Shown here: in pieces, positions 16,374 through 41,222 of the stretch | How positions within the stretch are numbered: position 1 is the first letter of the stretch | Layout: every line of letters starts with the position of its first letter | IMG/VR virus record: IMGVR_UViG_3300036402_000107 | Span: 1-56,019 of that record | Strand: one strand, 5' to 3' | Source: a virus | Taxonomy: Duplodnaviria; Caudoviricetes | DNA length: 56,019 nucleotides | The notes under the pieces: model-generated | What the model saw: only the letters and a program-made list of their open reading frames with translations | Databases searched by the model: none | Told to the model about the DNA's origin: nothing | Made by a program: the position numbers and the translations under genes

Positions 16374-18412
16374 TCGCAGTAATGTACGTTCTGGGCATCA
16401 CCTCGCTGGTCTACATGGTCGTTTACGCGGTCGTCTCGACGGCGATCTCCTACGGCATCAGCTACTTGCTCGGCAGGATGAACAAGCCGAGACAGCAGAC
16501 CGCACAGGAGTCTCAGCCGACGCTCTCCACGCGTGGTTCCCGCCTGACCCTCCTGCTCGGCCGTCGCCGCGTCGCCCCGGTCGTGCCGTGGGTCGGTGGC
16601 CGCACCGTCAAGAAGAACAGCAAGGCACAGTACTACAAAGAGAAGGGGATGCACGCAATCTGCCTTGGCCCGATCGATGCGATCCTCGAGATCTACGACG
16701 GCAGCAAGAAGATCCTCACGCCGACCATCGGCCCGCTCTACCGGGCGACGACGCCAGCCGGGTCACAGTTCACGGTTGAAGACGTCGGCACCTTCCGCGT
16801 CTACTGGGGCGAGAACGAGCAACCCCTCGACCCGATGCTTTACGAAGAGATGGGCATCGGCAGCATGTGGCCCGGCGTCGCCTACGTCGTCTGGGACAAC
16901 AAGGCGGTGAACCCGGGGTGGATCTGGAACGACGTACAGTACGTGGTCGAGCGGATCTTGACGACCGAAACCAATCTGACCGACTCGATCCCCCACCTCC
17001 CCCGCACGACGCGTCCCCGCCGTGGGGCGATCGACGACAGCGGCGTCAACCCCGCTCACGCGATCTGGTACTTCCTCACCGCCCCGAGTCCATACGGGCT
17101 GGGCGTTCCGGCTCAATGGCTCGACGGCGGTGCCTTTGAGTACCTAGGGCAGCTGTGCGTGGCGGAGCACCTGCCCGTCAACATACTGGCGAGGGACGGC
17201 GTCAACGGCGACCAAGTCCTCAGCGAACTCATGCAGGAGGTCGGCTTCTTCATCACGCAGGTCGGCGAGAAGTTGGTGCCGATCGTCGTCCGCCCCCCGG
17301 GCAACACGACGCTCCCGCAGATCACCATCGACGCACAGCAGCAGCCCCTCCCCGAGATCACGAGGCAGCACGGCGAGACGACGCCGACGCGGAGCATGTA
17401 CCGCATCTTCGACGAGGAGATGGGCTGGAAGCTCTCCGACCTCAACGTCGACAACGACGCCGCCGCCCGCTCCCGGGGTGCTCAGCAGTCCAAGGAAGTG
17501 CAGCTGCAGAACGTCACCAACAGGCTCACCGGCACCGAGATCATGCAGCGTATGGTGCGGGACGACTCGATCGACGGCGAGACCTACAGCTTCGAGCTGA
17601 TGCGGGGTGCCCGCGACCTCTGGCCCGGTCAGCTCTTCGTCGTCCCGAACTTCGGCACGCTCCGCGTCGCCAGCAAGAAGCCGAGCTTTATGAACTCAAC
17701 GGTCAGCATCGACGCCGTTCTGGAGAACTACGGGATACGGCTGCACGACCGGTACGTCGACGGCGTCGGCGACCCCCGCACCGACGGCATACAGCCCGTC
17801 GCCCAAGACCCCTATGTGCGTCTCTTCATCGTCCCCGAGGCGATTCTCAGCGTCGGCTCCCTCTCGATGTGGGTGCTCCGCGTCCGTGCCCACGGCGGGA
17901 TCGTCAGTGCAGAGGTTATGTTCAGTGCGACCGGTGCGAGCTACGCCCGGGTCAACCGCGACGAGCCGCACGTGACCGCCGGGACGATCAACCGCCCGAT
18001 CCTGATCGACGAGGCGACCCACAACGGAGGAGTGCTCGACGCCGCCCTGAGCTTCACGCCCTACAACGGCGACACTGACGAGATCGACGACCTCGCTGGC
18101 AACGACGCGGAGTGGGAGGAGGGCGACCAGATCGCCGTGATCGACGACGAGGTGTTCCTTGTGCAGAGGCTCGCACCGGTCGAGGGCGGGTTCAGGATCG
18201 ACGGCTTCCGCCGGGCGGTCTGGGGCACGGTGCCCGCAAACCACCTGCAGGGGACACCGGTCTACATCTTCAGGATCTCCGACCGCATCACCTACACGAG
18301 GCACCTCGTCCGTGCCGGGAACACCCTGCACGTCAAGACCCTGCCCTACACTTCCACCGACGAGATGACCCTCGCCACCGTCGCCGACCACGTGATCGCC
18401 TTCCCGGCGTGA
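16370..18412 (+). CDS. Central tail tip/host-specificity protein (gpJ/GTA g15-like)
   Basis: 'PGVAYVV', 'VNPAHAIW..LT...YGLG', 'IDDEVF', 'RAVWGT.P..H..G'. Confidence 0.75.
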   Translation: MIAVMYVLGITSLVYMVVYAVVSTAISYGISYLLGRMNKPRQQTAQESQPTLSTRGSRLTLLLGRRRVAPVVPWVGGRTVKKNSKAQYYKEKGMHAICLGPIDAILEIYDGSKKILTPTIGPLYRATTPAGSQFTVEDVGTFRVYWGENEQPLDPMLYEEMGIGSMWPGVAYVVWDNKAVNPGWIWNDVQYVVERILTTETNLTDSIPHLPRTTRPRRGAIDDSGVNPAHAIWYFLTAPSPYGLGVPAQWLDGGAFEYLGQLCVAEHLPVNILARDGVNGDQVLSELMQEVGFFITQVGEKLVPIVVRPPGNTTLPQITIDAQQQPLPEITRQHGETTPTRSMYRIFDEEMGWKLSDLNVDNDAAARSRGAQQSKEVQLQNVTNRLTGTEIMQRMVRDDSIDGETYSFELMRGARDLWPGQLFVVPNFGTLRVASKKPSFMNSTVSIDAVLENYGIRLHDRYVDGVGDPRTDGIQPVAQDPYVRLFIVPEAILSVGSLSMWVLRVRAHGGIVSAEVMFSATGASYARVNRDEPHVTAGTINRPILIDEATHNGGVLDAALSFTPYNGDTDEIDDLAGNDAEWEEGDQIAVIDDEVFLVQRLAPVEGGFRIDGFRRAVWGTVPANHLQGTPVYIFRISDRITYTRHLVRAGNTLHVKTLPYTSTDEMTLATVADHVIAFPA

Positions 18413-18655: not shown

Positions 18656-18907
18656 ATGAGCAAGAAGGGCTTCACCGTGCCGGTATGGCAAAAGAAACAC
18701 GCACCGGTCTGCGACTGCGGTAACGTCATGTCGCCCTGCATGGTGACCGTGGACGACGAGGGCAGGAAGCCGGAGCGTCTGCCGATGTGGCTCTGCCTCG
18801 AGCCGTCCCACGTGTGCACGGCCTCGCTCTACGTCCGGGCGATCCCCGACGACGAGCTGGAGGAGCAGTGGCGGACGCCCGCTTATAAACGAAAGCGGGC
18901 TTTATAA
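18656..18907 (+). CDS. Small Cys-rich hypothetical protein
   Basis: AGGAG upstream; CxC and 'WLC....HVC' suggest Zn binding. Confidence 0.55.
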   Translation: MSKKGFTVPVWQKKHAPVCDCGNVMSPCMVTVDDEGRKPERLPMWLCLEPSHVCTASLYVRAIPDDELEEQWRTPAYKRKRAL

Positions 18908-18946
18908 TCGGGGGGACTTGCGTCAACAGACCCCTTGTGGTATAAT
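18883..18946 (+). promoter_or_regulatory. Early sigma70 promoter P1 with upstream palindromic box
   Basis: TTATAAA-N11-TTTATAA (18883-18907); TTGCGT(18918)-17-TATAAT(18941) with extended TG. Confidence 0.85.
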
Positions 18947-19009
18947 GCGTCTTCGGTCGGGTTTCCCGATCGGCCGATCCGGCGGGTTCCGGGTTGAAAG
19001 GACGAGACC

Positions 19010-19435
19010 GTGCAGACGATCAAGACACTCCAAGGACAGTTTTTCCTCCTCAGCAACTTCGCCCCGACTCCCGTCAGCTTCGAGGGCGTCCTCTTCCCGA
19101 CCGTTGAACACGCCTTCCAAGCCCAGAAGACGCACGACAACGCCGAGCGTCGGCGGATCGCGAGCCTCCCCAAGCCCGGTCAGGCGAAGCACGCCGGGAA
19201 GCGAGTCAAGCTCCGGGAGGATTGGGAGCAGGTCAAGGTCGGGATCATGAAGGCGATTCTCGTCGCCAAGTTCGAGCAGAACGCAGCAGCACGGGACGTC
19301 CTTTATCGAACCGGCGACGCCCGGATCGAGGAGGGCAACCTTTGGAACGACACCTTTTGGGGCGTCAGCCTTAAGACCGGGAAGGGCAAGAACACCCTCG
19401 GGCTCCTCCTCGAAGAGATCCGCAACACGCTTTGA
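19010..19435 (+). CDS. NADAR (YbiA-like) family protein
   Basis: 'LSNF', 'FPTVEHAFQAQK', 'LREDWEQVK..IM..ILVAKF.QN', 'EGN.W.DTFWG', 'GKN.LG.LL..IR'. Confidence 0.9.
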   Translation: MQTIKTLQGQFFLLSNFAPTPVSFEGVLFPTVEHAFQAQKTHDNAERRRIASLPKPGQAKHAGKRVKLREDWEQVKVGIMKAILVAKFEQNAAARDVLYRTGDARIEEGNLWNDTFWGVSLKTGKGKNTLGLLLEEIRNTL

Positions 19436-19498
19436 GCCGAAACGCCCGAGAGGGCGTCTGCAGCGATCGACCCCGCTGCACTGACGAGGCAGGTTCCT
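19436..19498 (+). ncRNA. Type II hammerhead ribozyme HH1
   Basis: GCC-GAAAC-GCCC-GAGA-GGGC-GTC^(19458)-TGCAGCG-loop-CGCTGCA-CTGACGA-GGC-AGGTTCCT; complete catalytic core. Confidence 0.93.
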
Positions 19499-19515
19499 TG
19501 ACTCAGGAGACACCG

Positions 19516-19836
19516 ATGATTCTCGAGATCCAGAAGTGGCAGCAGGACGTGCAGGCCAAGAACCTGCACCGGGCGGACGTCGTGCACAAGTTCAGCGGCA
19601 TTAAGGTCGGCTTCATGACGCAGCAGACCTACAAGTGCAAGGGCGGTCTGGGAGCGACGTTCAAGATGTACGCCCTGCTCTCGAACGGCACCGACACCAC
19701 CTACGTCTGGTCTTCCTCGATCAACGGCGGCGACCTCACCCACGAGAACGAGCAGTGTGCTCGCCGGTGCGGGCTGGAGATCCTGACCCGCTACGTCGAG
19801 AAGCACGGCGTGCCCGGGGTTAAGCAGATCGCTTGA
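19516..19836 (+). CDS. Hypothetical protein (gene B of cassette 1)
   Basis: AGGAG 19505-19509, ATG 19516. Confidence 0.65.
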   Translation: MILEIQKWQQDVQAKNLHRADVVHKFSGIKVGFMTQQTYKCKGGLGATFKMYALLSNGTDTTYVWSSSINGGDLTHENEQCARRCGLEILTRYVEKHGVPGVKQIA

Positions 19837-19861
19837 CACCAACGCGTTCGTGTGGTAGAAT
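19833..19861 (+). promoter_or_regulatory. Early sigma70 promoter P2
   Basis: TTGACA-17-TAGAAT with extended TG. Confidence 0.8.
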
Positions 19862-19916
19862 CCGTGGTTGGGGGTCTGACCCGGCAGGTTCCGGGGTTCG
19901 AGAGGATCGGTGCTCT

Positions 19917-20180
19917 GTGTTCTTTGTCTTCGCTGAAGATCTCTGCTCCTGCCTCGTCGGCCCGTTCGAGACCCGCGAGGAGGCGGAGGGTCATCTGGCT
20001 TGGTGCCGTGACGAGCGGCACGACGGTGCGACCATGGAGGTCGTGTCTCGGTTCATCGCCGAGCGTCTGTCGCCGGACATGACGATGACCCCCGCCCTAG
20101 ACCGGGCGTCCTCCCCCGTCGCCAGCGACGCCCTGCAGCCGTGGGACGACCTCGACGCGAACGGCCGTCAGGTCTTCTAA
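19917..20180 (+). CDS. Hypothetical protein
   Basis: Downstream of P2, GAGG upstream; 'VGPFETREEA' motif. Confidence 0.5.
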   Translation: MFFVFAEDLCSCLVGPFETREEAEGHLAWCRDERHDGATMEVVSRFIAERLSPDMTMTPALDRASSPVASDALQPWDDLDANGRQVF

Positions 20181-20208
20181 ACCGAACAACAACTTAACGA
20201 AGATCAAG

Positions 20209-20245
20209 AGACCCCTCCCCGTGACCCGGGCGAGGGGTCTTGCGT
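20209..20245 (+). terminator. Hairpin/terminator before P3
   Basis: AGACCCCTC / GAGGGGTCT stem. Confidence 0.45.
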
Positions 20246-20301
20246 TATAAAGGGCGTCCGCGTCTATACTACTTGCGTTAACGCAAAAGCTGTGGTATAA
20301 T
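20245..20301 (+). promoter_or_regulatory. Early sigma70 promoter P3 with palindromic box
   Basis: TTATAAA-N11-TCTATAC (20245-20269); TTGCGT(20273)-17-TATAAT(20296), extended TG. Confidence 0.85.
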
Positions 20302-20364
20302 CCTCTTTCGGTTGCGGATTCGCAACCGGCCGATCCGGCGGTGAGTCCGGACTGAAAGGACTAG

Positions 20365-20769
20365 ATGATGATTCGCCAGTTCATTCCGATCGGCTTCGAG
20401 TTCCCCGGTGGCTACACTTGGTGCGTCGACGACGAAAAGAAGGAATCGCACGCCGTCTACCCTGACGGGTCGTCCAAGCCCGCGACTGAGTCTTACTCCG
20501 GTGACTTCCTGTCCTTTGCCTTAGATTCAGTCGATCAAGAAGTCTGGCTGGAGCTGACCCGCCCTCTCGTCTGGATCGACACCGGCCTCGAAGGCCAGCC
20601 GTACGTCGAGGTCTACGAGGTCTTCGTCTGCACCGCCGTGATCGACGGCGTGAAGGTGGCCCGGTACTCGAACCCGGAGAAGGACGAAATGGTCGAGGTG
20701 CCCGTGAGCGAGATCCGCACCGGTCGCGGGGTCTTCGCCGACAAGAACGTCTTCGACTGCTCCAAGTAA
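20365..20769 (+). CDS. Hypothetical acidic protein (gene A of cassette 2)
   Basis: GAAAGGA SD then ATG; stop abuts HH2. Confidence 0.7.
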   Translation: MMIRQFIPIGFEFPGGYTWCVDDEKKESHAVYPDGSSKPATESYSGDFLSFALDSVDQEVWLELTRPLVWIDTGLEGQPYVEVYEVFVCTAVIDGVKVARYSNPEKDEMVEVPVSEIRTGRGVFADKNVFDCSK

Positions 20770-20833
20770 GCCGAAACGCCCGCGAGGGCGTCGAGCGAGG
20801 ATTGACCTCCCGCTCCTGACGAGGCAGGTTCCT
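20770..20833 (+). ncRNA. Type II hammerhead ribozyme HH2
   Basis: GCC-GAAAC-GCCC-GCGA-GGGC-GTC^(20792)-GAGCG(A)GG..CCCGCTC-CTGACGA-GGC-AGGTTCCT. Confidence 0.93.
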
Positions 20834-20852
20834 CCTGACGGAGAATGACGAG

Positions 20853-21251
20853 ATGACCATCACCCAGATCAAGCGGAAGCACAACCCCCATCAACCCGTG
20901 GGCCGCTGGATTCGCCCCGCGAAGCGGATGGCGATCTACCTCAGGGATCGCTTCCAGTGCCTTTACTGTGGTGCCGACCTCCACGGCGTCACCGACCCCC
21001 GCCACATCCAGCTCGACCACAAGACCCCGGTGAGCAAGGGAGGCTCGAACCTCGAGCACAACGTCTTCACGACCTGCATGCGTTGCAACTGCTCGCGGGG
21101 ATCGAAGCCCTTCCGGTCGTTCGCGACCACGGGGGCGAAGCAGCGGGCCAAGCGTCAGCTCTCGCTCTCGCTCAAGCCGTACCTCGCCCTCGCCAAGGCC
21201 ATCTGCTCGGGGGCGGTCAGCAGGGAGCAGGCTCTCAGCGAGATCCGCTAG
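20853..21251 (+). CDS. HNH endonuclease
   Basis: 'RDRFQCLYCG...LDHKTPVSKGGSN...NVFTTCMRCNCSRG'. Confidence 0.85.
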   Translation: MTITQIKRKHNPHQPVGRWIRPAKRMAIYLRDRFQCLYCGADLHGVTDPRHIQLDHKTPVSKGGSNLEHNVFTTCMRCNCSRGSKPFRSFATTGAKQRAKRQLSLSLKPYLALAKAICSGAVSREQALSEIR

Positions 21252-21296
21252 CGTCCGTGAAACGACCGGGCACCCCCGGGGTGATGAAAGGTGACG

Positions 21297-21449
21297 ATGA
21301 TCTACCGAATCCTGCAAGCTCGCTTCGGCCGTTGGGGGCGTCGCCTCGCCCTCCTCTGCGTCGCAATCTGGGTCTTCACGCTCCTCTGCTGCCTGCTGGC
21401 CTTTGGCTGGCAGCTGTTAGGGCGTTATAAAAGCGGCGGGGCTTTATAG
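21297..21449 (+). CDS. 50-aa single-pass membrane peptide (not in the ORF track)
   Basis: TGAAAGG SD; MIYRILQARFGRWGRRLALLCVAIWVFTLLCCLLAFGWQLLGRYKSGGAL*. Confidence 0.5.
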   Translation: MIYRILQARFGRWGRRLALLCVAIWVFTLLCCLLAFGWQLLGRYKSGGAL

Positions 21450-21489
21450 CAGGCAGGGGATTGCGTAGGCTTACAGCCTGTGGTACAAT
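21425..21489 (+). promoter_or_regulatory. Early sigma70 promoter P4 with palindromic box
   Basis: TTATAAA-N11-TTTATAG (21425-21449); TTGCGT(21461)-17-TACAAT(21484), extended TG. Confidence 0.85.
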
Positions 21490-21556
21490 GCGTCCTCAGT
21501 CGTGGGATCACGACTGGCCGACCCGGCGGTGAGTCCGGGATGAAAGGACGTGCGAC

Positions 21557-21748
21557 GTGAGCGAGACGAACCTCCCCAAGTGGATCGAAGACCTGAAGGC
21601 GGACTTTATCGAGTGGAGCGGCGGCTTCGGCCCCGAGGAGTGCGAGGTCGATGAGATCACCAAGTACCTCGAAGTCAGCGAGATCGACGAGGACGACGAT
21701 CGATTCGGTGCCCTCTGGGATCTCCACAACGGCGAGCTTGAAGACTGA
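21557..21748 (+). CDS. Small, very acidic protein (gene A of cassette 3)
   Basis: GAAAGGA SD, GTG start; 63 aa, D/E-rich; stop abuts HH3. Confidence 0.65.
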   Translation: MSETNLPKWIEDLKADFIEWSGGFGPEECEVDEITKYLEVSEIDEDDDRFGALWDLHNGELED

Positions 21749-21812
21749 GCCGAAACGCCCGCGAGGGCGTCCGACCGAGACTAACCCCCGGTCGCTGATG
21801 AGGCAGGTTCCT
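21749..21812 (+). ncRNA. Type II hammerhead ribozyme HH3
   Basis: GCC-GAAAC-GCCC-GCGA-GGGC-GTC^(21771)-CGACCG..CGGTCG-CTGATGA-GGC-AGGTTCCT. Confidence 0.93.
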
Positions 21813-21833
21813 CGATCTCGAAAGGATCACGTC

Positions 21834-22991
21834 ATGGTTGCAGGAAAGATCACCCCCGCTGGTCACATGGTCAAGGGTCTCGACGGCGTTGAGCGTTTCG
21901 TCGCCCACGAGGCCGATCAGGACGGCCCGGTCACCGAGACGACGAAGACCCCGCGTCTCGCCCCCAAGAGCAAGGCCGAGAAGAAGGCCGACAAGGCCGC
22001 GAAGAAGGGCAAGCCGGTCGTCGAGACCGTCGACGCCGGTGGCGGCATCTTGGTCGACGTCGCGGACAGCAAGCCCGCGAAGAAGGCCAAGAAGGTCAAG
22101 ACCGCTGGCCCGCTCTCGACCGAGGTCTCCAACCCGGAGCAGGAGGAAGTGAAGAAGACGACGTGCAACCACGGCGTCAAGTCCAACGAGAGCATCCTCT
22201 GGGAGATCGCCGACAAGTACAGCAACGCCTGTGCGACCCGGATCTCTGACCCGTTCACGGGCGAGAGCACCGGCTTCGCGATGGTGCACGGCTGGGACGG
22301 TGCCGCCGAGCAGTGGCACTCCGTCCGCCCGGTGAGCGACCGGTACAAGCCGATCCGGACACAGGATCTCATCGAGATCGCCGTCGAGCGTCTGCAGGGG
22401 ACGCCGCTGATGGCCGAGAAGATCCGCACCGACCGCTTCGGCACTTCGCTCGAGGTCAAGATCCCGATCAACCGCCCGATCGAGATCGGCAAGGGCGTCG
22501 CGTTCGATCAGGGTCACCCGTGGACTCGCCACGGCGAGCACACCAAGCGGGACGTGCTCTACCCGGTCGTGAACATACGTAACGCCTACGACGCCACCTC
22601 CTCGATCATCGTCGACGTCGGGCTGTTCCGGATGATCTGCAGCAACGGCATGAAGATCATGCTCGCGGGAGTCGGTGCCAAGGCGATCCACACGAAGCAC
22701 GAGGTCGCCCGCGTCATCGAGACCATCGCCAAGCAGGAACTCACCGGCGACCTCGACTTCGTCCGCAAGCTCTCGGTCGCGAAGCTCGACGTCAAGGACG
22801 TCGCGAAGATCATGGGCGACCGCGTCCCCGAGAAGTGGCAGAAGGAGCTAGCGGAGTACGCCAAGCTCGGCGGGAACACCGCTTGGTCGTGGATGAACGG
22901 CCTGAGCTACCTGAGCACCCACGAGTATAGTCTCCTCCGCTCGCGTCAGCTTGACCCGATCATGACGGCGATTCAGAAGCTCGCCGCCTAG
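21834..22991 (+). CDS. DUF932-like protein with Lys-rich N-terminus
   Basis: 'VSDRYKPI', 'NAYDATSS....GLFRMICSNGM', 'IHTK', 'TAWSWMN..S...TH'. Confidence 0.75.
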   Translation: MVAGKITPAGHMVKGLDGVERFVAHEADQDGPVTETTKTPRLAPKSKAEKKADKAAKKGKPVVETVDAGGGILVDVADSKPAKKAKKVKTAGPLSTEVSNPEQEEVKKTTCNHGVKSNESILWEIADKYSNACATRISDPFTGESTGFAMVHGWDGAAEQWHSVRPVSDRYKPIRTQDLIEIAVERLQGTPLMAEKIRTDRFGTSLEVKIPINRPIEIGKGVAFDQGHPWTRHGEHTKRDVLYPVVNIRNAYDATSSIIVDVGLFRMICSNGMKIMLAGVGAKAIHTKHEVARVIETIAKQELTGDLDFVRKLSVAKLDVKDVAKIMGDRVPEKWQKELAEYAKLGGNTAWSWMNGLSYLSTHEYSLLRSRQLDPIMTAIQKLAA

Positions 22992-23073
22992 GGCCGAGAC
23001 CGCCGACCACGGACGCCCTCCCGACGCGGAGGGCGTCCTGCTCGTTGGTCTCAGACCAGAAGGGAAGCAGGAG

Positions 23074-23346
23074 ATGGACAAGACGAACAGCCACCGCCAC
23101 AAGTGTGCAGTGTGCGGCTTCGTTTGGCGTCACGCGAACGAGTCCCCCGGGCGTGACAACGACGTGGCCCACACGTGCCGGTGCGGCAACCAGCAGTTCT
23201 TCATCTACCGGGGCGAGGACAAGGCACAGGTCGCGACGTGCGGGCGTCCCTGCAGGCAGGGCGACCGACCCGTCCTCGCCCCCGGCGTCGTGTATCAAGC
23301 TTACTTCGGCGACCTGCACCCCGACAACAAACCCGGCGACCTCTAG
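23074..23346 (+). CDS. Small Zn-finger-like hypothetical protein
   Basis: AGGAG SD; 'HKCAVCGFVWRH...HTCRCG'. Confidence 0.55.
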   Translation: MDKTNSHRHKCAVCGFVWRHANESPGRDNDVAHTCRCGNQQFFIYRGEDKAQVATCGRPCRQGDRPVLAPGVVYQAYFGDLHPDNKPGDL

Positions 23347-23385
23347 CCGACGACCCGGCGTGACCCGGGCTGAAAGGAACGCAAC

Positions 23386-23877
23386 GTGAACGAAGCACAG
23401 AAGAAGATTCTCGAGAAGCACCCCGGAGCCCGGCTGCAGAAGCTGGTCTACGTCGGCGTCCGACCCGGCAACAAGACCAAGCGGGTGTACGGCTACGTCA
23501 AGGTCAGTGACGACGACCTCAAGTCAGGTAACCCGGTGGTCAATGCCGCACAGGCGATGTACTGGAAGAAGAGCCTCTACCCGGGCACGGCGGGGACGGT
23601 CATCGAGATCGTCATGGAGGAGGGGGCGGACGGCGTCTCGATCTGGAAGGCCGTAAACTACGTGGGCCGCTGGCCGAACCGCGAGCAGTGCGTCGCGTGG
23701 CAGGCGGAGCACGACGAGACGGTGGCCGACCTCGACAGCAAGAAGGACGCGATGCACGACTCGATCATCGAGACGCTGGCACCGGTCGCGAAAGCCTACC
23801 GACACTCGAACCGAGCGGGACGGGCCGTGCTCCTCGCCAAGGTCATCCGGTACCTTACGGCCTCGTCCTTCGACTAG
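23386..23877 (+). CDS. Hypothetical protein
   Basis: Preceded by a CCCGG/CCGGG hairpin and TGAAAGGA SD. Confidence 0.65.
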   Translation: MNEAQKKILEKHPGARLQKLVYVGVRPGNKTKRVYGYVKVSDDDLKSGNPVVNAAQAMYWKKSLYPGTAGTVIEIVMEEGADGVSIWKAVNYVGRWPNREQCVAWQAEHDETVADLDSKKDAMHDSIIETLAPVAKAYRHSNRAGRAVLLAKVIRYLTASSFD

Positions 23878-23935
23878 ACGCAACGCGTCCCGACCCCCCG
23901 ACGTACAACCCGGCGAAGACGACCGCTCTCGGGGA

Positions 23936-24004
23936 TTATAGAGAGCGGTCTTCTTTATAACGCAACAGGAAGTACTTGCGTTGACGACCAGCCTGTGTTA
24001 TAAT
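23936..24004 (+). promoter_or_regulatory. Early sigma70 promoter P5 with palindromic box (overlaps a terminator-like hairpin)
   Basis: TTATAGA-N11-TTTATAA (23936-23960); TTGCGT(23976)-17-TATAAT(23999), extended TG. Confidence 0.85.
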
Positions 24005-24070
24005 GCGTTCTCGGTCGGGGTTTCCGACCGAGCCGACCCGGCGACGAACCCGGGATGACGGAGACGACCA

Positions 24071-24376
24071 ATGACCAACGAGACTTTCAACGCCGCCTTT
24101 TCGCAGAAGTCCGCCTTTGCGGCCATCCGCTCGCTCGGACTGACCGTCAAGAAGACTGAGGACGGCGAGATCCGAGTGAACTTCAAGGGTCACAGCGAGG
24201 AGACCGCCTACTACACCACCGACCTGAAGGACGCTTACGACACCGCCCGTTCGATGGCTGCCCTCAAGGCGAGCAGCAGCCCCAAGAAGAAGTGTCACCT
24301 TTGCGGCGGCACCGACCACACCTCCTCGCAGTGCGAGTTCACCGGCGAAGCCGAAGCCACCGACATGAATCGCTGA
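24071..24376 (+). CDS. Hypothetical protein with C-terminal CCHC zinc knuckle (gene A of cassette 4)
   Basis: 'CHLCGGTDHTSSQC' = CX2CX4HX4C. Confidence 0.7.
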   Translation: MTNETFNAAFSQKSAFAAIRSLGLTVKKTEDGEIRVNFKGHSEETAYYTTDLKDAYDTARSMAALKASSSPKKKCHLCGGTDHTSSQCEFTGEAEATDMNR

Positions 24377-24412
24377 AACGAGACGACCCGCCCGTGGGTC
24401 ATGAAACGGGAA

Positions 24413-24475
24413 GCCGAAACGCCCTGCGGGGCGTCGGGCGGGAATGACCTCCCGCCCCTGATGAGGCAGGTTCCT
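24413..24475 (+). ncRNA. Type II hammerhead ribozyme HH4
   Basis: GCC-GAAAC-GCCC-TGCG-GGGC-GTC^(24435)-GGGCGGGA-ATGACC-TCCCGCCC-CTGATGA-GGC-AGGTTCCT. Confidence 0.93.
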
Positions 24476-24497
24476 CGACTCAAGAACGGAGGCCCCC

Positions 24498-25184
24498 GTG
24501 GCCAACAAGCTCGCAGCTGCTATCGCGTTCCGTCAGTACGCCAAGACCAAGACCCGCAAGGTCGGTGACGCCGTCGACGACCCGATCGCCGACAAGCTCG
24601 CCAAGGCCCAGTCCGCCGACGACATGGCCAAGCTCGCCATCGAGTCGGGCATCCCCAAGGACGTTGTCGAGGAGAAGGCCAAGAAGGCCCCGAACCCCGG
24701 TCAGTTCCGCATGACCATCGGGAACCTGATCCGTGGCGTTTACGCCCGGGTCGAGAAGTACCACACCCTCACGGGCGGGCGGGTCGATGCGGCGGACGTC
24801 GGGACGAAGAAGCTCTTTCAGGCGAAGATGGCGGAGTACCGCAAGGCCAACCGCCCCGTGAAGGACGGCCCGAAGCCCTCGACTGGGAAGAAGAAGACCG
24901 AGACCGCCAAGAAGGGCGGCAGGGTCGCTGCCTCCAAAAGCGGCAAGGGCGACGCTGCGGCGACTCCCAAGGGAGCACCCAGCAAGTCCGAGGCCGCTGG
25001 CCGTGGCAAGGGAAAGAAGGGTGGCGACGGTTCTGCCAAGAAGTCCCGCTGGCAGCGGAACGCCAGCAACAAGAAGGGCAAGCCCGCTGCTGACGCTGCT
25101 GACGGTGCGGGCGTGGGCGAGCAGGGCGAGCAGGAGGGCGGGCAGTCCAGTCTTGCCGAGGCAATTGCCGAAGCCAACAGCTGA
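24498..25184 (+). CDS. Hypothetical protein with Lys/Ala/Gly-rich basic tail
   Basis: GGAGG SD, GTG start; 'PNPGQFRMTIGNLIRG' core. Confidence 0.7.
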   Translation: MANKLAAAIAFRQYAKTKTRKVGDAVDDPIADKLAKAQSADDMAKLAIESGIPKDVVEEKAKKAPNPGQFRMTIGNLIRGVYARVEKYHTLTGGRVDAADVGTKKLFQAKMAEYRKANRPVKDGPKPSTGKKKTETAKKGGRVAASKSGKGDAAATPKGAPSKSEAAGRGKGKKGGDGSAKKSRWQRNASNKKGKPAADAADGAGVGEQGEQEGGQSSLAEAIAEANS

Positions 25185-25399
25185 TCTCGTGAACGCGTGG
25201 GCGGTGAGGCTGGGTGGCAACCCCCGCCTCACCGCCTTGTTTCTGGACGTCACCTTTAGAGCCTTCCCCGACGAGTGGTGCATGCGAGCTTTTGGCGTCC
25301 CCTACCCTCCGCTCTCCGTGGTCTTCGGCAACGGGTCACAGGAGCGGTACCAAGAGATGATCCGCCGCCCGGGAAGCTACGTGAAGAGAGACTGACCCC

Positions 25400-26936: not shown

Positions 26937-27488
26937 ATGGATTCGACGAAGCGAAAGCAACAAGTGACGCCCTCGCAAGAAGGCAAGGCGACGCCGGACT
27001 GGAGCAGGATCGGCCGGAGGAGCAGGAGGAAGGGGAAGAAGTACGAGAACGTGATCGCGGGGTGCCTCCGAGACTGCATGGGTCTGAACTGGCAGACGAC
27101 GCGAAACAGCGGCCGAACCGACTTGAAGGGAGATCTGTACTGTCTCGATCGTCCGGGCTTCGTCGTCGTGGAGTGCAAGGATCGTGACACTTTCCAACCT
27201 CTGTGCATGCTGCAGGAGAATGCGGGGTTCGTCAATGAGCTTGACAAAGTACGCGACGAAACGAAAGGCCAAGGTCGTGTCGTCATCTTCTCGAAAGTCC
27301 GCCTGCTCGGCGACCTCGTCGGCGTCCTCCGCGACCCGGAGGGCAGGACGATCGACGACTTCCTCATCGGCTCGCAGCGGACGGGCATCCACGCGGGGGG
27401 CGTCCTGTGGCGGCTCGTCCGCGACGGCCTCGACTGCGACGAAGCGGAGAGACTCCTCTTCCGTGGCATCGGTGAGTCCGCAGTCTAG
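26937..27488 (+). CDS. PD-(D/E)XK nuclease, Holliday junction resolvase-like
   Basis: 'SRRKGKKYENVIA', 'GDL', 'VVECK'. Confidence 0.75.
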   Translation: MDSTKRKQQVTPSQEGKATPDWSRIGRRSRRKGKKYENVIAGCLRDCMGLNWQTTRNSGRTDLKGDLYCLDRPGFVVVECKDRDTFQPLCMLQENAGFVNELDKVRDETKGQGRVVIFSKVRLLGDLVGVLRDPEGRTIDDFLIGSQRTGIHAGGVLWRLVRDGLDCDEAERLLFRGIGESAV

Positions 27489-27972
27489 CTACGTCGCGTT
27501 GATCCGTCTAGCCCGCGACGGGCACCGCGGGGCGTGGGAGGCGATGGTGGCCCGGCTCACCCCGATGCTGCGGTCTTTGGCCCGTCGCCTTGGCCCGGTC
27601 GGGCACGAGGAGGACGCCGTGCAGGAAGCCCTGCTACGCGTCGTGCAGCAGATCGGGCGGGTCGATCTCGGCCGCGAGTCCACGGCCCGCACCTTCATCA
27701 TGAACGCGGGCGTGTTCGCGATCCGCACCTTCAACACCAAGATCATGAGGGAGAACCGACGCGACAAGCTGAAGACACACCGCACCGGCGTCGTCCAAGA
27801 CCCCGACCTCGCCGACTTCCCGCCCGTCCTGTCGCTATACTTCCGCTACATCATGGAGCACGGCACGATTCTCGGTGCCCACAAGAGCGTCGGCGACGAG
27901 TTGGGGATTCACAAGGCGTCCGCGTTCCGCCGCTTCCATCAAGAGGCGAAGACTTTCATGGAGGGACTGTGA
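27472..27972 (+). CDS. ECF-like RNA polymerase sigma factor
   Basis: 'LIRLARDGHRGAWEAMV', 'EDAVQEALL', 'TFIMN...', C-terminal 'ELGIHKASAFRR' HTH. Start uncertain. Confidence 0.7.
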   Translation: MSPQSSYVALIRLARDGHRGAWEAMVARLTPMLRSLARRLGPVGHEEDAVQEALLRVVQQIGRVDLGRESTARTFIMNAGVFAIRTFNTKIMRENRRDKLKTHRTGVVQDPDLADFPPVLSLYFRYIMEHGTILGAHKSVGDELGIHKASAFRRFHQEAKTFMEGL

Positions 27973-37667: not shown

Positions 37668-38060
37668 ATGGCCAAGGGACGCGGAATGATCGACCTATCG
37701 TGCCGCTCGTGCGGACGCCGCTACGGCTTCACGTGGATCGAGGGAGAGCCGATCCCGCCCTGCCCGCACTGCAGGGCGATGCCGAACGAGAAGACGCAGC
37801 GGGACATGGCCCACGTCTTCGCAGTGGAGGCACTTTTGGAAAAGAACGCTCACGGCATGACCCCGTGCGAGCTGCAGAGGGCGAGGATCGCCGCCGGTCT
37901 CTCGATCGGCCAAGCCGCCAAGATCCTTGGAATCACCGTCGACGATCTGGAGAGGATCGAGGGCGGGACGCGTAAGCTCGACGTCGCCCTCGCCGTCGCC
38001 ATCGACAACGCGTATTGGCTGGCGAAACAGACGAGCGATCCCACGGGTCATGAGAGGTAG
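37668..38060 (+). CDS. Zn-ribbon plus XRE-HTH transcriptional regulator
   Basis: CxxC...CxxC then 'LQRARIAAGLSIGQAAKILGITVDDLERIEGG'. Confidence 0.75.
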   Translation: MAKGRGMIDLSCRSCGRRYGFTWIEGEPIPPCPHCRAMPNEKTQRDMAHVFAVEALLEKNAHGMTPCELQRARIAAGLSIGQAAKILGITVDDLERIEGGTRKLDVALAVAIDNAYWLAKQTSDPTGHER

Positions 38061-39234: not shown

Positions 39235-40211
39235 GCACTCGAGAGCTTAACAAGACGATCCTCGAGTACGTGAGGAGGGCGGTGGAGCTTGGGGACTACG
39301 AAGTCTCCGGCTTCCGCCTTCTCATGCGGTGCCCGCTCCCCGAGTGCCAAGAGGCCCGCAAACAGGAGCACTTCTACGTTAACCGCGAGTGGTATGGCTG
39401 GAAGTGCTACCGGCAGGGGGTGCAGGGCTCGCTGCGGGATCTCGTGCTGGCGAACCCCCTGCTCTGGGCACCGGTGCGGTCGCTGGACGACCGGGGGCAG
39501 GCTCGGCTCTCCGCCGACGTCCACCGGCTGCCCGACGACCTCGTCCCCCTCACCGAGGTCTCCGACCGCATCTTCGCCTCCCACCGGCGACGGGCTTATG
39601 AATACGCACTGCGGCGGGGCATCTCCCCGGCACAGATCCACGACTACAAGCTCGCCGTCAAGCAGGCCGACCCCCGCCTGTGGTTCCCCTTCTGGACGCC
39701 CGAGGGCGAGACGGTCTTCCGCATGGGCAGGCTCATCGAGACGCCGGGCGACCCGCCCGTCGAGGCGATCAAGACGTGGGACGAGGGCGTGCCCGACAAG
39801 CCGCTGTACGGCTCGCACGTCCGGAAGCCCACGGGGTTCCTCGCCCTCGTCGAGGGCGTCGTCGATCACTTCGTGACGCCGCACAGCTGCAGCCTGATGG
39901 GGAGCACGATCACGACCTCGCAGGCGGACACCGTCGAGCAGTGGTGCCGCGACGGGCTGGTCGACCGCGTCTTCGGGCTGTTCGACCCCGACGCCAAGGA
40001 CAAGGCCCGGCGTGAGATCCTGAAGCTGAGGAGGAGGGGCGTGAACGCGGCGGCGTGCTTCCTCGAGCGGACGGACAGCGACCCGGGGAAGCTTGGGGCG
40101 GGGGTGATGGGGCGGGTCAGCCGTGCTCTCGGGGCTGTGGCTTGCTCGACTCTTGCATCAAGACCGTTTCTAACACTTCACGTGCCTCCGCCAGCGTTCG
40201 CGACACCGTAG
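39231..40211 (+). CDS. DNA primase (Zn finger plus TOPRIM)
   Basis: 'CPLPEC...H...WKCYR', 'LVEGVVD', 'FDPDA', 'DPG'. Confidence 0.8.
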   Translation: MSTRELNKTILEYVRRAVELGDYEVSGFRLLMRCPLPECQEARKQEHFYVNREWYGWKCYRQGVQGSLRDLVLANPLLWAPVRSLDDRGQARLSADVHRLPDDLVPLTEVSDRIFASHRRRAYEYALRRGISPAQIHDYKLAVKQADPRLWFPFWTPEGETVFRMGRLIETPGDPPVEAIKTWDEGVPDKPLYGSHVRKPTGFLALVEGVVDHFVTPHSCSLMGSTITTSQADTVEQWCRDGLVDRVFGLFDPDAKDKARREILKLRRRGVNAAACFLERTDSDPGKLGAGVMGRVSRALGAVACSTLASRPFLTLHVPPPAFATP

Positions 40212-40659
40212 CGAGCGACAGGCCGCTGATCCTCGCCAGCTGACGCTGCGTCGCCGCACAGGGCGTCGGCGGGAAGAGACGGGCGTGGACGACCCGCGTC
40301 TGCCGACCGGAGAGACGCATGACCGCTTCCTTGAGGGCGAGGATCGAGAGCGGGTCGGGCCGCTGGTGCGGCAGGAGCGGGGAGACCTCGCCCACGGTGA
40401 AGCGGTACTGCTCGTGCCTGCGTATGTTCTTGCACTTGTTGCGGATCGCCGCGATCACCGACCCGGGGTGCGTCTTGCAGACCCGCCCCTCGTGGTACTT
40501 GCTCCGCGTCGGCCTCGCCGTCCAGTTCTGGCGGGAGAGGTGGATCAGGACTTCCTGCCTTATGTCGTCGGCGTCCCAGATGCCGGTCACGAACTTGCTC
40601 GCCTGATGCCGGATCATCTCGCCGAACCACAGGTCGAGGTACTCGATGGTGAGCTTCAT
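40117..40659 (-). CDS. ECF-like sigma factor (minus strand)
   Basis: GGAGG SD; 'DADDIRQEVLI', 'IRNKCKNIRR', 'LSGRQTRV...TQRQLARISGLSLATVSR'. Confidence 0.75.
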   Translation of the reverse strand: MKLTIEYLDLWFGEMIRHQASKFVTGIWDADDIRQEVLIHLSRQNWTARPTRSKYHEGRVCKTHPGSVIAAIRNKCKNIRRHEQYRFTVGEVSPLLPHQRPDPLSILALKEAVMRLSGRQTRVVHARLFPPTPCAATQRQLARISGLSLATVSRTLAEAREVLETVLMQESSKPQPREHG

Positions 40660-40671
40660 GCTTCCTCCGTG

Positions 40672-41193: not shown

Positions 41194-41222
41194 ATTGTAC
41201 CAGACCCGGTACCCCTTGTCAA
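41194..41222 (-). promoter_or_regulatory. sigma70 promoter P6 driving the minus-strand operon
   Basis: TTGACA-17-TACAAT with extended TG on the reverse strand. Confidence 0.85.

Follow-up and report, generated by a model that had tools for sequence, protein, structure and literature searches.

The stretch analysed here (the window) is a full virus record of 56,019 nucleotides (nt), IMGVR_UViG_3300036402_000107, with 64% G+C, which codes for a terminase, a major head protein, tail genes and a DNA polymerase region, and also for an adenylosuccinate synthetase, a dUTPase and two sigma-like proteins. Between the tail module, which ends at 18412, and the replication genes lies a region in which one type of unit, containing a hammerhead ribozyme, occurs four times (P1, P3, P4 and P5). 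Each unit consists of an inverted repeat, a sigma70 promoter, a leader with two hairpins, a first gene (gene A), a type II hammerhead, a ribosome-binding site and a second gene (gene B). This arrangement is real and far exceeds chance. An earlier, sequence-only reading of this DNA had placed a Shine-Dalgarno site and one second gene behind each ribozyme; the order of hammerhead, Shine-Dalgarno site and gene B holds, but P3 has three genes and P4 has four, and therefore the ribozyme splits the first cistron from the remainder. The features of the units are on the plus strand, except for the inverted repeats, to which no strand is assigned.

Components of the repeated unit

A search of the whole window with the Rfam model Hammerhead_II (RF02276; cut-off 37 bits) gave four matches, all on the plus strand, within 5 kb and inside the cassette region. 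They start at 19435 (40.4 bits), 20769 (37.9 bits), 21748 (36.4 bits) and 24412 (45.3 bits), and three of them are above the cut-off; the remaining one, in P4, has an E-value (E) of 9e-4. The ribozymes are found at 19436-19498, 20770-20833, 21749-21812 and 24413-24475, with predicted cuts after 19458, 20792, 21771 and 24435, respectively. In all four the hammerhead is the minimum-energy structure, with stems I and III closed by loops and stem II open, and the core (CUGANGA and GAAA) and the cleavage triplet GUC are intact. Stem II has 3 pairs in each copy, while the stem I sequences differ and yet are fully paired in 4/4. A pseudoknot of 4-5 pairs between loop I and the 3' tail can be read from the sequence of every copy; it is common, but not universal, in other viral copies among the matches listed. 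Identity among the four copies is only 71-80%, and the exact words that they share are 13-24 nt long.

The ribozyme follows the first gene in every unit. The distance from the stop codon of gene A to stem II is 0, 0, 0 and 36 nt, which, upon recomputation, agrees with the distances originally reported. The predicted cut falls 23 nt past the gene A stop, or 59 nt in P5, the start of gene B lies 57-62 nt further on, and the predicted 3' product has a hairpin of 7-8 pairs at its very start in all four cases.

The promoter motif TTGCGT-17-TAYAAT, which the earlier reading gave for P1, P3, P4 and P5, occurs exactly four times in the window (18918, 20273, 21461 and 23976). All four sites carry a TG extension. 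The predicted P1 promoter (TTGCGT-17-TATAAT) spans 18918-18946, and those of P3, P4 and P5, assigned by the motif, span 20273-20301, 21461-21489 and 23976-24004. The operator-like inverted repeat, or box, has the form TATA-N15-TATA and is located at 18883-18907, 20245-20269, 21425-21449 and 23936-23960. The upstream palindrome of the earlier reading is borne out, for TATA-N14..18-TATA is found at four places in 56 kb, all with N15 and each just 5' of one of the four TTGCGT promoters. With the wider pattern TATA-N12..18-TATA, four occurrences are observed against a mean of 0.04 in 200 dinucleotide shuffles. For tighter patterns the shuffle rates understate chance, since these patterns were fitted to the sites seen in the window. 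The fifth promoter of the region, P2 (19833-19861; TTGACA-17-TAGAAT), has neither box nor ribozyme, as had been stated; it serves the open reading frame (ORF) at 19917-20180, and its leader scores only 11 bits.

Some minor features of the promoter regions may be added. One terminator-like site lies at box 1 (9 such sites were found and 7.5 were expected), GC hairpins without a U-tract precede boxes 3 and 5, and box 5 (23935-23965) can also be read as a promoter-like pair of hexamers on the minus strand with a 19-nt spacer. Frpo-type single-stranded DNA promoters are marked by upstream complements of the -35 and -10 hexamers in register. Such complements are present at only one of the five promoters (P5, spacer 19), and this candidate was rejected.

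The leaders lie at 18953-19009, where hairpin 1 at the predicted 5' end is followed by hairpin 2 and the ribosome site (the start site being assumed), and, as assigned by fold, at 20308-20367, 21496-21556 and 24011-24070. Their consensus fold consists of two hairpins, with two-sided changes in 4 of 16 pairs; hairpin 1 differs in sequence between the leaders, its changes compensating one another, while hairpin 2 is conserved in sequence. The exact words common to the leaders are 10-16 nt long. A copy of hairpin 2 with a ribosome site, but without a promoter, is also found directly 3' of the stop of gene C4 in unit P4 (23347-23385; 28.1 bits, E 1.8e-8), and weaker, non-significant look-alikes occur at 19875, 21260 and 24381. 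The last of these is a degenerate stretch (24381-24412; assigned by similarity, with a non-significant model score) that fills the 36-nt gap of P5 and is possibly the remnant of a lost gene.

The cargo of the units is diverse. In P1, gene A1 (19010-19435; 141 amino acids, aa) codes for a YbiA-type NADAR protein (PF08719, E 3e-27; TIGR02464 above cut-off; PDB 2b3w), and gene B1 (19516-19836; 106 aa) belongs to no family in profile searches. In P3, gene A3 (20368-20769; 133 aa) found only itself, and no relative, among proteins of near length; gene B3 (20853-21251) is a small HNH nuclease by Pfam; and a weak hairpin-2-like entry, with a non-significant model score, leads to the hydrophobic gene C3 (21297-21449; 50 aa), the whole spanning 21260-21449. 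In P4, gene A4 (21557-21748) codes for an acidic peptide of 63 aa with no family, gene B4 (21834-22991) for a DUF932 protein with homologues in distantly related phages, gene C4 (23074-23346) for a Cys/His-rich protein of 90 aa with no family, and gene D4 (23386-23877) for a protein of 163 aa, also with no family. In P5, gene A5 (24071-24376; 101 aa) has a weak Zn knuckle (phrog_7884, E 1e-4), and gene B5 (24498-25184), which has homologues in related phages, combines a helical N-terminal domain with a Lys/Ala-rich tail. A strong terminator-like hairpin (25199-25244) marks the end of the region. The NADAR, HNH and DUF932 labels of the earlier reading stand, but the Zn knuckle is under the Pfam cut-off (E 0.035). 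A role of B5 as a regulator was considered and rejected; its model has a predicted local distance difference test score (pLDDT) of 64 and no Foldseek match at E ≤ 0.001, and its best fold match, a death domain (VIA Z 6.7), is within noise for helical bundles. Atlas searches with B5 and D4 gave no usable match.

Stop abutment and recurrence in other genomes

The position of the ribozyme directly behind a stop codon may be assessed in the wider hammerhead subfamily. The exact subfamily pattern is found in at least 118 viral loci. Among the matches listed, to which the viral counts in this paragraph refer, there are 125 matches, 116 of them distinct and 113 with 200 nt of upstream sequence. A reading frame of at least 40 codons ends at -1..+3 of stem II in 94 of these 113 copies, compared with 548 of 22,600 random positions (2.4%), and the 94 copies have 93 different upstream C-termini. 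A frame of at least 40 codons is closed by 94 of the 101 stop triplets at -1..+3, versus 16% of all stop triplets in the same loci, which rejects nucleotide bias as the cause. Only one of the 113 copies has nothing other than a frame that reads through into the ribozyme. In prokaryote genomes, stop abutment is seen in 30 of 43 copies. Stop abutment is therefore general in the hammerhead subfamily, though not universal, and is not special to the window phage. As a separate observation, in one hammerhead subfamily (L004, L008, L095, L109 and others) the 3' tail is exactly complementary to the catalytic strand, co-varies with it and may possibly form an off-state hairpin.

Large arrays are present in two cultured Streptomyces phages that were reached by BLAST, VieEnRose (ON526983, L143) and Alvy (NC_054669, L147). 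Scans of the whole records gave 10 hammerhead matches in VieEnRose (8 over the cut-off) and 11 in Alvy (10 over the cut-off). In each phage they all lie on one strand, in a stretch of some 9 kb in the right arm. Three promoters of similar appearance and a short motif in several copies are also present in the right arm of VieEnRose. The gap to the stop is ≤ 4 nt for 6 of 11 copies in VieEnRose, one of which was identified by eye, and ≥ 12 nt to the annotated stop for 10 of 11 copies in Alvy.

The HNH family of B3 provides a second route to related loci, of which 80 of 134 were kept by protein similarity (L203-L282), two of them being the seeds. A sigma70-like promoter is found within 200 nt upstream of the HNH match in 30 of the 78 loci with enough flank, versus 4 in antisense and 0 downstream; genes of this small HNH family thus frequently come first after a strong sigma70-like promoter. 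In several unrelated phages a hammerhead or twister ribozyme comes next. Five of the 78 non-seed loci have a hammerhead or twister above the Rfam cut-off, and others have sub-cut-off matches at E < 1e-5 (two), pattern matches (two) or a ribozyme identified by eye (one); the antisense control of the pattern gave 0 in 80. A further pattern match, in L249, was discarded because it would make an implausible hammerhead. In one unrelated phage (L224), an inverted repeat around a promoter is followed by the HNH gene, a hammerhead 3 nt past its stop, and the next gene.

The nearest relative of B3 in these HNH loci (59%) is encoded by G011. There (L283, G011:C1:36039-41600), nine hammerhead-like modules with a ribosome-binding site are 90-99% identical, and each precedes another small gene. 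Eight of the modules lie 2-36 nt past a stop, and the array is headed by a promoter-like site together with a structured leader that is long. All nine are under the cut-off and have the core GAAC instead of GAAA, so that their activity is uncertain.

The exact leader pattern has no match outside the window. Among the 80 further loci, one two-hairpin leader match follows an HNH gene (L269; 22.7 bits, E 1.8e-5); the matches in L245 and L255 (19.5 bits) were rejected because they are placed in the end of a coding frame. The leader of the window phage therefore appears to be almost private to it, and the full architecture seems to recur in parts only. From outside the window, modularity is supported by the L224 order and the G011 borders.

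Two further records deserve mention in their own right. Within one 16-kb stretch, L150 (Dulem virus 39) has four tRNAs and a RAGATH-27 RNA besides three hammerhead matches and a gene annotated as the ligase RtcB. L079 (1440-1960 and 2550-2620) has an intergenic repeat of about 50 nt before successive genes and a second, type III-like hammerhead 5' of its type II copy.

Single queries of IMG/VR with the tail protein or the DUF932 protein gave no close relative. The closer homologues of B5 (70%) and B4 (76%) are each on a 21,595-nt contig. In two distant relatives, L145 (9690-9790) and L146 (8486-8580), a conserved non-coding element of about 60 nt with no Rfam match lies before the B5 homologue. 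More distant relatives carry homologues of B5 in three loci (42-45% over about 60 residues) and of B4 in four loci (35-36%), with core genes in common and with B4 after the primase region. As no hammerhead was found in the loci and records of these relatives that were scanned, B4 and B5 look like inherited genes that were put into the kit in the window lineage. The codon use of gene A differs slightly from that of gene B (G+C at synonymous third positions, GC3s, 0.83 vs 0.89; p 0.006) but not from that of other small genes (p 0.17), which gives weak support to a variable first slot. Contigs that may come from the source sample, covering about 71% of the run, have no listed junction at a leader or ribozyme, but coverage is patchy and no conclusion is drawn from them.

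Proposed function of the units and its alternatives

The components of the kit, their order, their fold and their placement are directly established. On balance, it is probable that they constitute a repeated kit for early expression, in which cleavage detaches the first cistron from those that follow, each of the two RNA ends so created carries a hairpin, and early genes are expressed independently. The earlier reading of a self-processing early expression system is well supported by the unit anatomy and by a published precedent (Perreault et al. 2011, PMC3088659), while the functional steps are here predictions.

Under the proposed scheme, host sigma70 polymerase would initiate at the four strong predicted promoters, and the transcript would open with a 5'-end hairpin. 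Hairpin 1 likely shields this end, and the conserved hairpin 2 before the ribosome site is likely a protein-binding site. The type II hammerhead, given its geometry, would then cleave behind gene A. Because of the type II topology, the gene A RNA would end in stem III with a cyclic phosphate, and the RNA of genes B-D would begin with a 5'-OH and a terminal hairpin formed by stem I, a counterpart to the one at the leader start, followed by its own ribosome site. Each cistron block would thereby gain fixed structured ends, with expression independent of the gene in the first slot. A dimeric phage regulator may bind the inverted repeat and later shut the units off. The shared 10-24 exact bases could also be used as recombination borders, as a secondary effect. 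Early expression of the cargo is plausible. In hosts that rely on RNase E, RNA decay is generally slowed by terminal hairpins and by 5'-OH ends.

A candidate box binder is an XRE-type helix-turn-helix (HTH) protein with a Cys motif (37668-38060; HTH_31, E 4e-7), which lies 12 kb off, outside the cassettes; its tie to the box is conjectural. Apart from this, two sigma-70-like proteins are encoded at 27484-27972 and 40117-40662, the second on the minus strand with its own promoter at 41194-41222.

Several results weigh against the proposed scheme. The spacing from box to -35 differs among the units (10, 3, 11 and 15 nt), and the box lies clear of the promoter core, which makes repression uncertain; no HTH was found in the ten cargo proteins with Pfam and PHROGs. 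The earlier claim of a two-hairpin leader is sustained by the consensus and by three of the four leaders folded alone, but the P3 leader favours an alternative long hairpin of lower energy. The full leader is present in no other locus, the leader model reaching at best 16.9 bits in 154 loci, and the L269 match did not come back when whole records were searched with the first filter relaxed. The distant relatives with B4 or B5 homologues have no hammerhead in six loci and three records (44-56% complete), and therefore the kit is dispensable in the wider group. Finally, a 5'-OH end can also hasten decay, as for glmS (PMC6765202).

The glmS precedent leads to a first alternative, namely that the ribozyme is a timer or damper, whose 5'-OH product decays fast and thus lowers or shortens the expression of genes B-D relative to gene A. 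Some B genes, such as the HNH nuclease, could indeed be harmful if expressed for long. We nevertheless regard this as unlikely, because the 3' product starts with the hairpin of 7-8 pairs described above in all four units, and because G011 and the Streptomyces phages set a ribozyme before most of their array genes, each with a ribosome site.

The sharp peak of stops at -1..+3 might instead reflect gating by translation, with a ribosome at the gene A stop covering stem II, the ribozyme folding only when gene A is not translated, and a hairpin downstream acting as a trap. Among the matches listed, a hairpin able to pair with the catalytic strand is predicted at p ≤ 0.05 for 32 of 112 other copies, 19 of which share one tail family, and for 11 of 50 tail families; in the window, none of the four copies reaches significance (p 0.07, 0.50, 0.11 and 0.15). 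The gaps in Alvy and the 36-nt gap of P5 are also at odds with gating. Moreover, the non-catalytic hairpin-2 module at 23347 adjoins a stop too, so that genome compaction can account for the spacing. Release of the core makes the ribosome site of gene B easier to reach in three of the four window copies; among the matches listed, it does so in 17 of 66 other copies and makes it harder in 28, and cleavage-activated translation of gene B was therefore rejected as a general rule. Translational gating is thus improbable.

About equally doubtful is the view that the repeats are chiefly recombination substrates or spreading elements, the ribozyme activity being of little weight for expression. The exact words shared by hammerheads and by leaders, the near-identical G011 modules, the precedent of the PeSL cassettes (PMC2839356) and the codon use of gene A relative to gene B are all in its favour. 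Stem I, however, differs in sequence and yet remains paired in 4/4, which is unexpected from selection on identity alone, and the codon use of gene A does not differ from that of other small genes. The least probable is that pairs of ribozymes excise RNA segments for ligation into circular or spliced mRNAs: read-through across units would yield segments with 5'-OH and cyclic-phosphate ends, and the unrelated L150 has RtcB in the same stretch as its hammerheads, but such products were sought and none detected by Perreault et al. (PMC3088659), and no RtcB is found among the window proteins scanned (part of all ORFs).

Beyond the window, we tentatively raise a broader idea, with rather low confidence: a hammerhead with a ribosome site might be a widespread natural cassette border in phages, which would standardise mRNA ends, allow capture behind a stop, offer homology for swaps and build an integron-like array without an integrase. 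To this the window would add one regulator, acting on DNA box and leader hairpin, for four arrays.

Relation to known systems

Each part of the unit has counterparts. Several hammerheads flanking genes of inconstant identity have been described in prophages, with tandem copies that cleave in vitro and in E. coli, and the processing of long phage transcripts was proposed in the same work (PMC3088659). The window resembles these clusters of pseudoknotted type II hammerheads near genes or short blocks of changing identity, since its four same-strand ribozymes lie within 5 kb beside unrelated genes. In contrast to the published clusters, its ribozymes are fixed after the first gene of a promoter unit of their own, and box and leader are common to the units. 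Neither stop codons nor Shine-Dalgarno sites are mentioned in the main text of PMC3088659.

The PeSL cassettes of the T4-type phages RB49 and phi1 are repeated promoter-hairpin cassettes that shuffle genes, with about 50 copies per genome (PMC2839356). Repeated sigma70 promoters, AT-rich upstream DNA, hairpins, a ribosome site and genes of unknown function are common to them and the window. The PeSL hairpins, however, are terminators at the promoter, whereas the shared hairpins of the window sit in the leader; no ribozyme is described in the accessible part of the PeSL paper, and shuffling is demonstrated for PeSL but not for the window phage.

In the acr-aca operons, which are under Aca1 or Aca2 control, an inverted repeat at a strong phage promoter is combined with conserved hairpins after the start; Aca2 binds two leader hairpins and blocks translation, and one regulator can serve several operons (PMC13551039). 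The window likewise has an inverted repeat at the promoter and hairpins in the leader, but its repeat is upstream of the -35 hexamer without overlap, and the accessible part of PMC13551039 mentions no ribozyme. No HTH or ribbon-helix-helix regulator gene was found in the ten cargo proteins (Pfam and PHROGs), in C3 or in the P2 gene (Pfam), nor any recognised anti-CRISPR in the units by scans of general libraries, without a search specific to anti-CRISPRs.

In synthetic insulators of the RiboJ type, self-cleavage fixes the 5' end and leaves a hairpin ahead of the ribosome site regardless of the upstream sequence. The hammerheads of the window differ in being natural, intergenic and of type II, so that the upstream RNA also retains a terminal hairpin. 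Ribozyme-linked genes have reportedly been treated by Roth (2014) and Weinberg (2015) as well. If the hammerheads do act as insulators, phages evolved the synthetic biologists' trick for interchangeable parts, and hammerhead borders would mark slots that are enriched in early effector genes.

An anti-defence role of the cargo, which the earlier reading had suggested, is weakly supported and a lead only. One NADAR protein is present, and phage NADARs are able to counter DarTG1, but it is of the YbiA type, which of the subfamilies has the weakest link to anti-defence in the papers cited: YbiA-like proteins are treated as housekeeping in the work that reports on DarTG1 (bioRxiv 2024.07.11.602962), and E. 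coli YbiA gives no rescue from DarT1 toxicity, although one YbiA from myxobacteria acts as an antitoxin (PMC11125620).

It follows that the novelty once claimed for this architecture was overstated, hammerhead clusters by changing genes having been in print since 2011 and both promoter cassettes and operator-hairpin leaders having counterparts. In the mostly open-access literature searched, no paper was found that covers the complete arrangement, the abutment of stops or arrays of hammerheads in Streptomyces phages, though the supplements of PMC3088659 may list cases. Apparently new, within that literature, are the stop-abutment rule, the unit order that recurs in an unrelated phage together with the nine-border array, and the Streptomyces-phage arrays.

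The role of bacterial self-cleaving ribozymes is largely elusive (PMC6765202). The locus offers a clean anatomy repeated four times with exact predicted cut sites, and the placement rule, right behind a stop and ahead of a ribosome site, extends over 93 different genes among the matches listed. Because of this rule and of the similar arrays in cultured phages, the question of what these ribozymes are for becomes testable; with 10-11 hammerheads each, the Streptomyces phages make cleavage, mRNA decay and fitness measurable. Aminoglycosides, which are known hammerhead binders, block early phage infection (PMC9239200), and it is a speculation that the ribozyme-rich early arms of these phages are one of the targets. 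In the stretches viewed, the hammerheads of VieEnRose and Alvy are unannotated, short repeated DNA motifs precede several copies, and some annotated small genes that overlap the hammerheads may be false calls.

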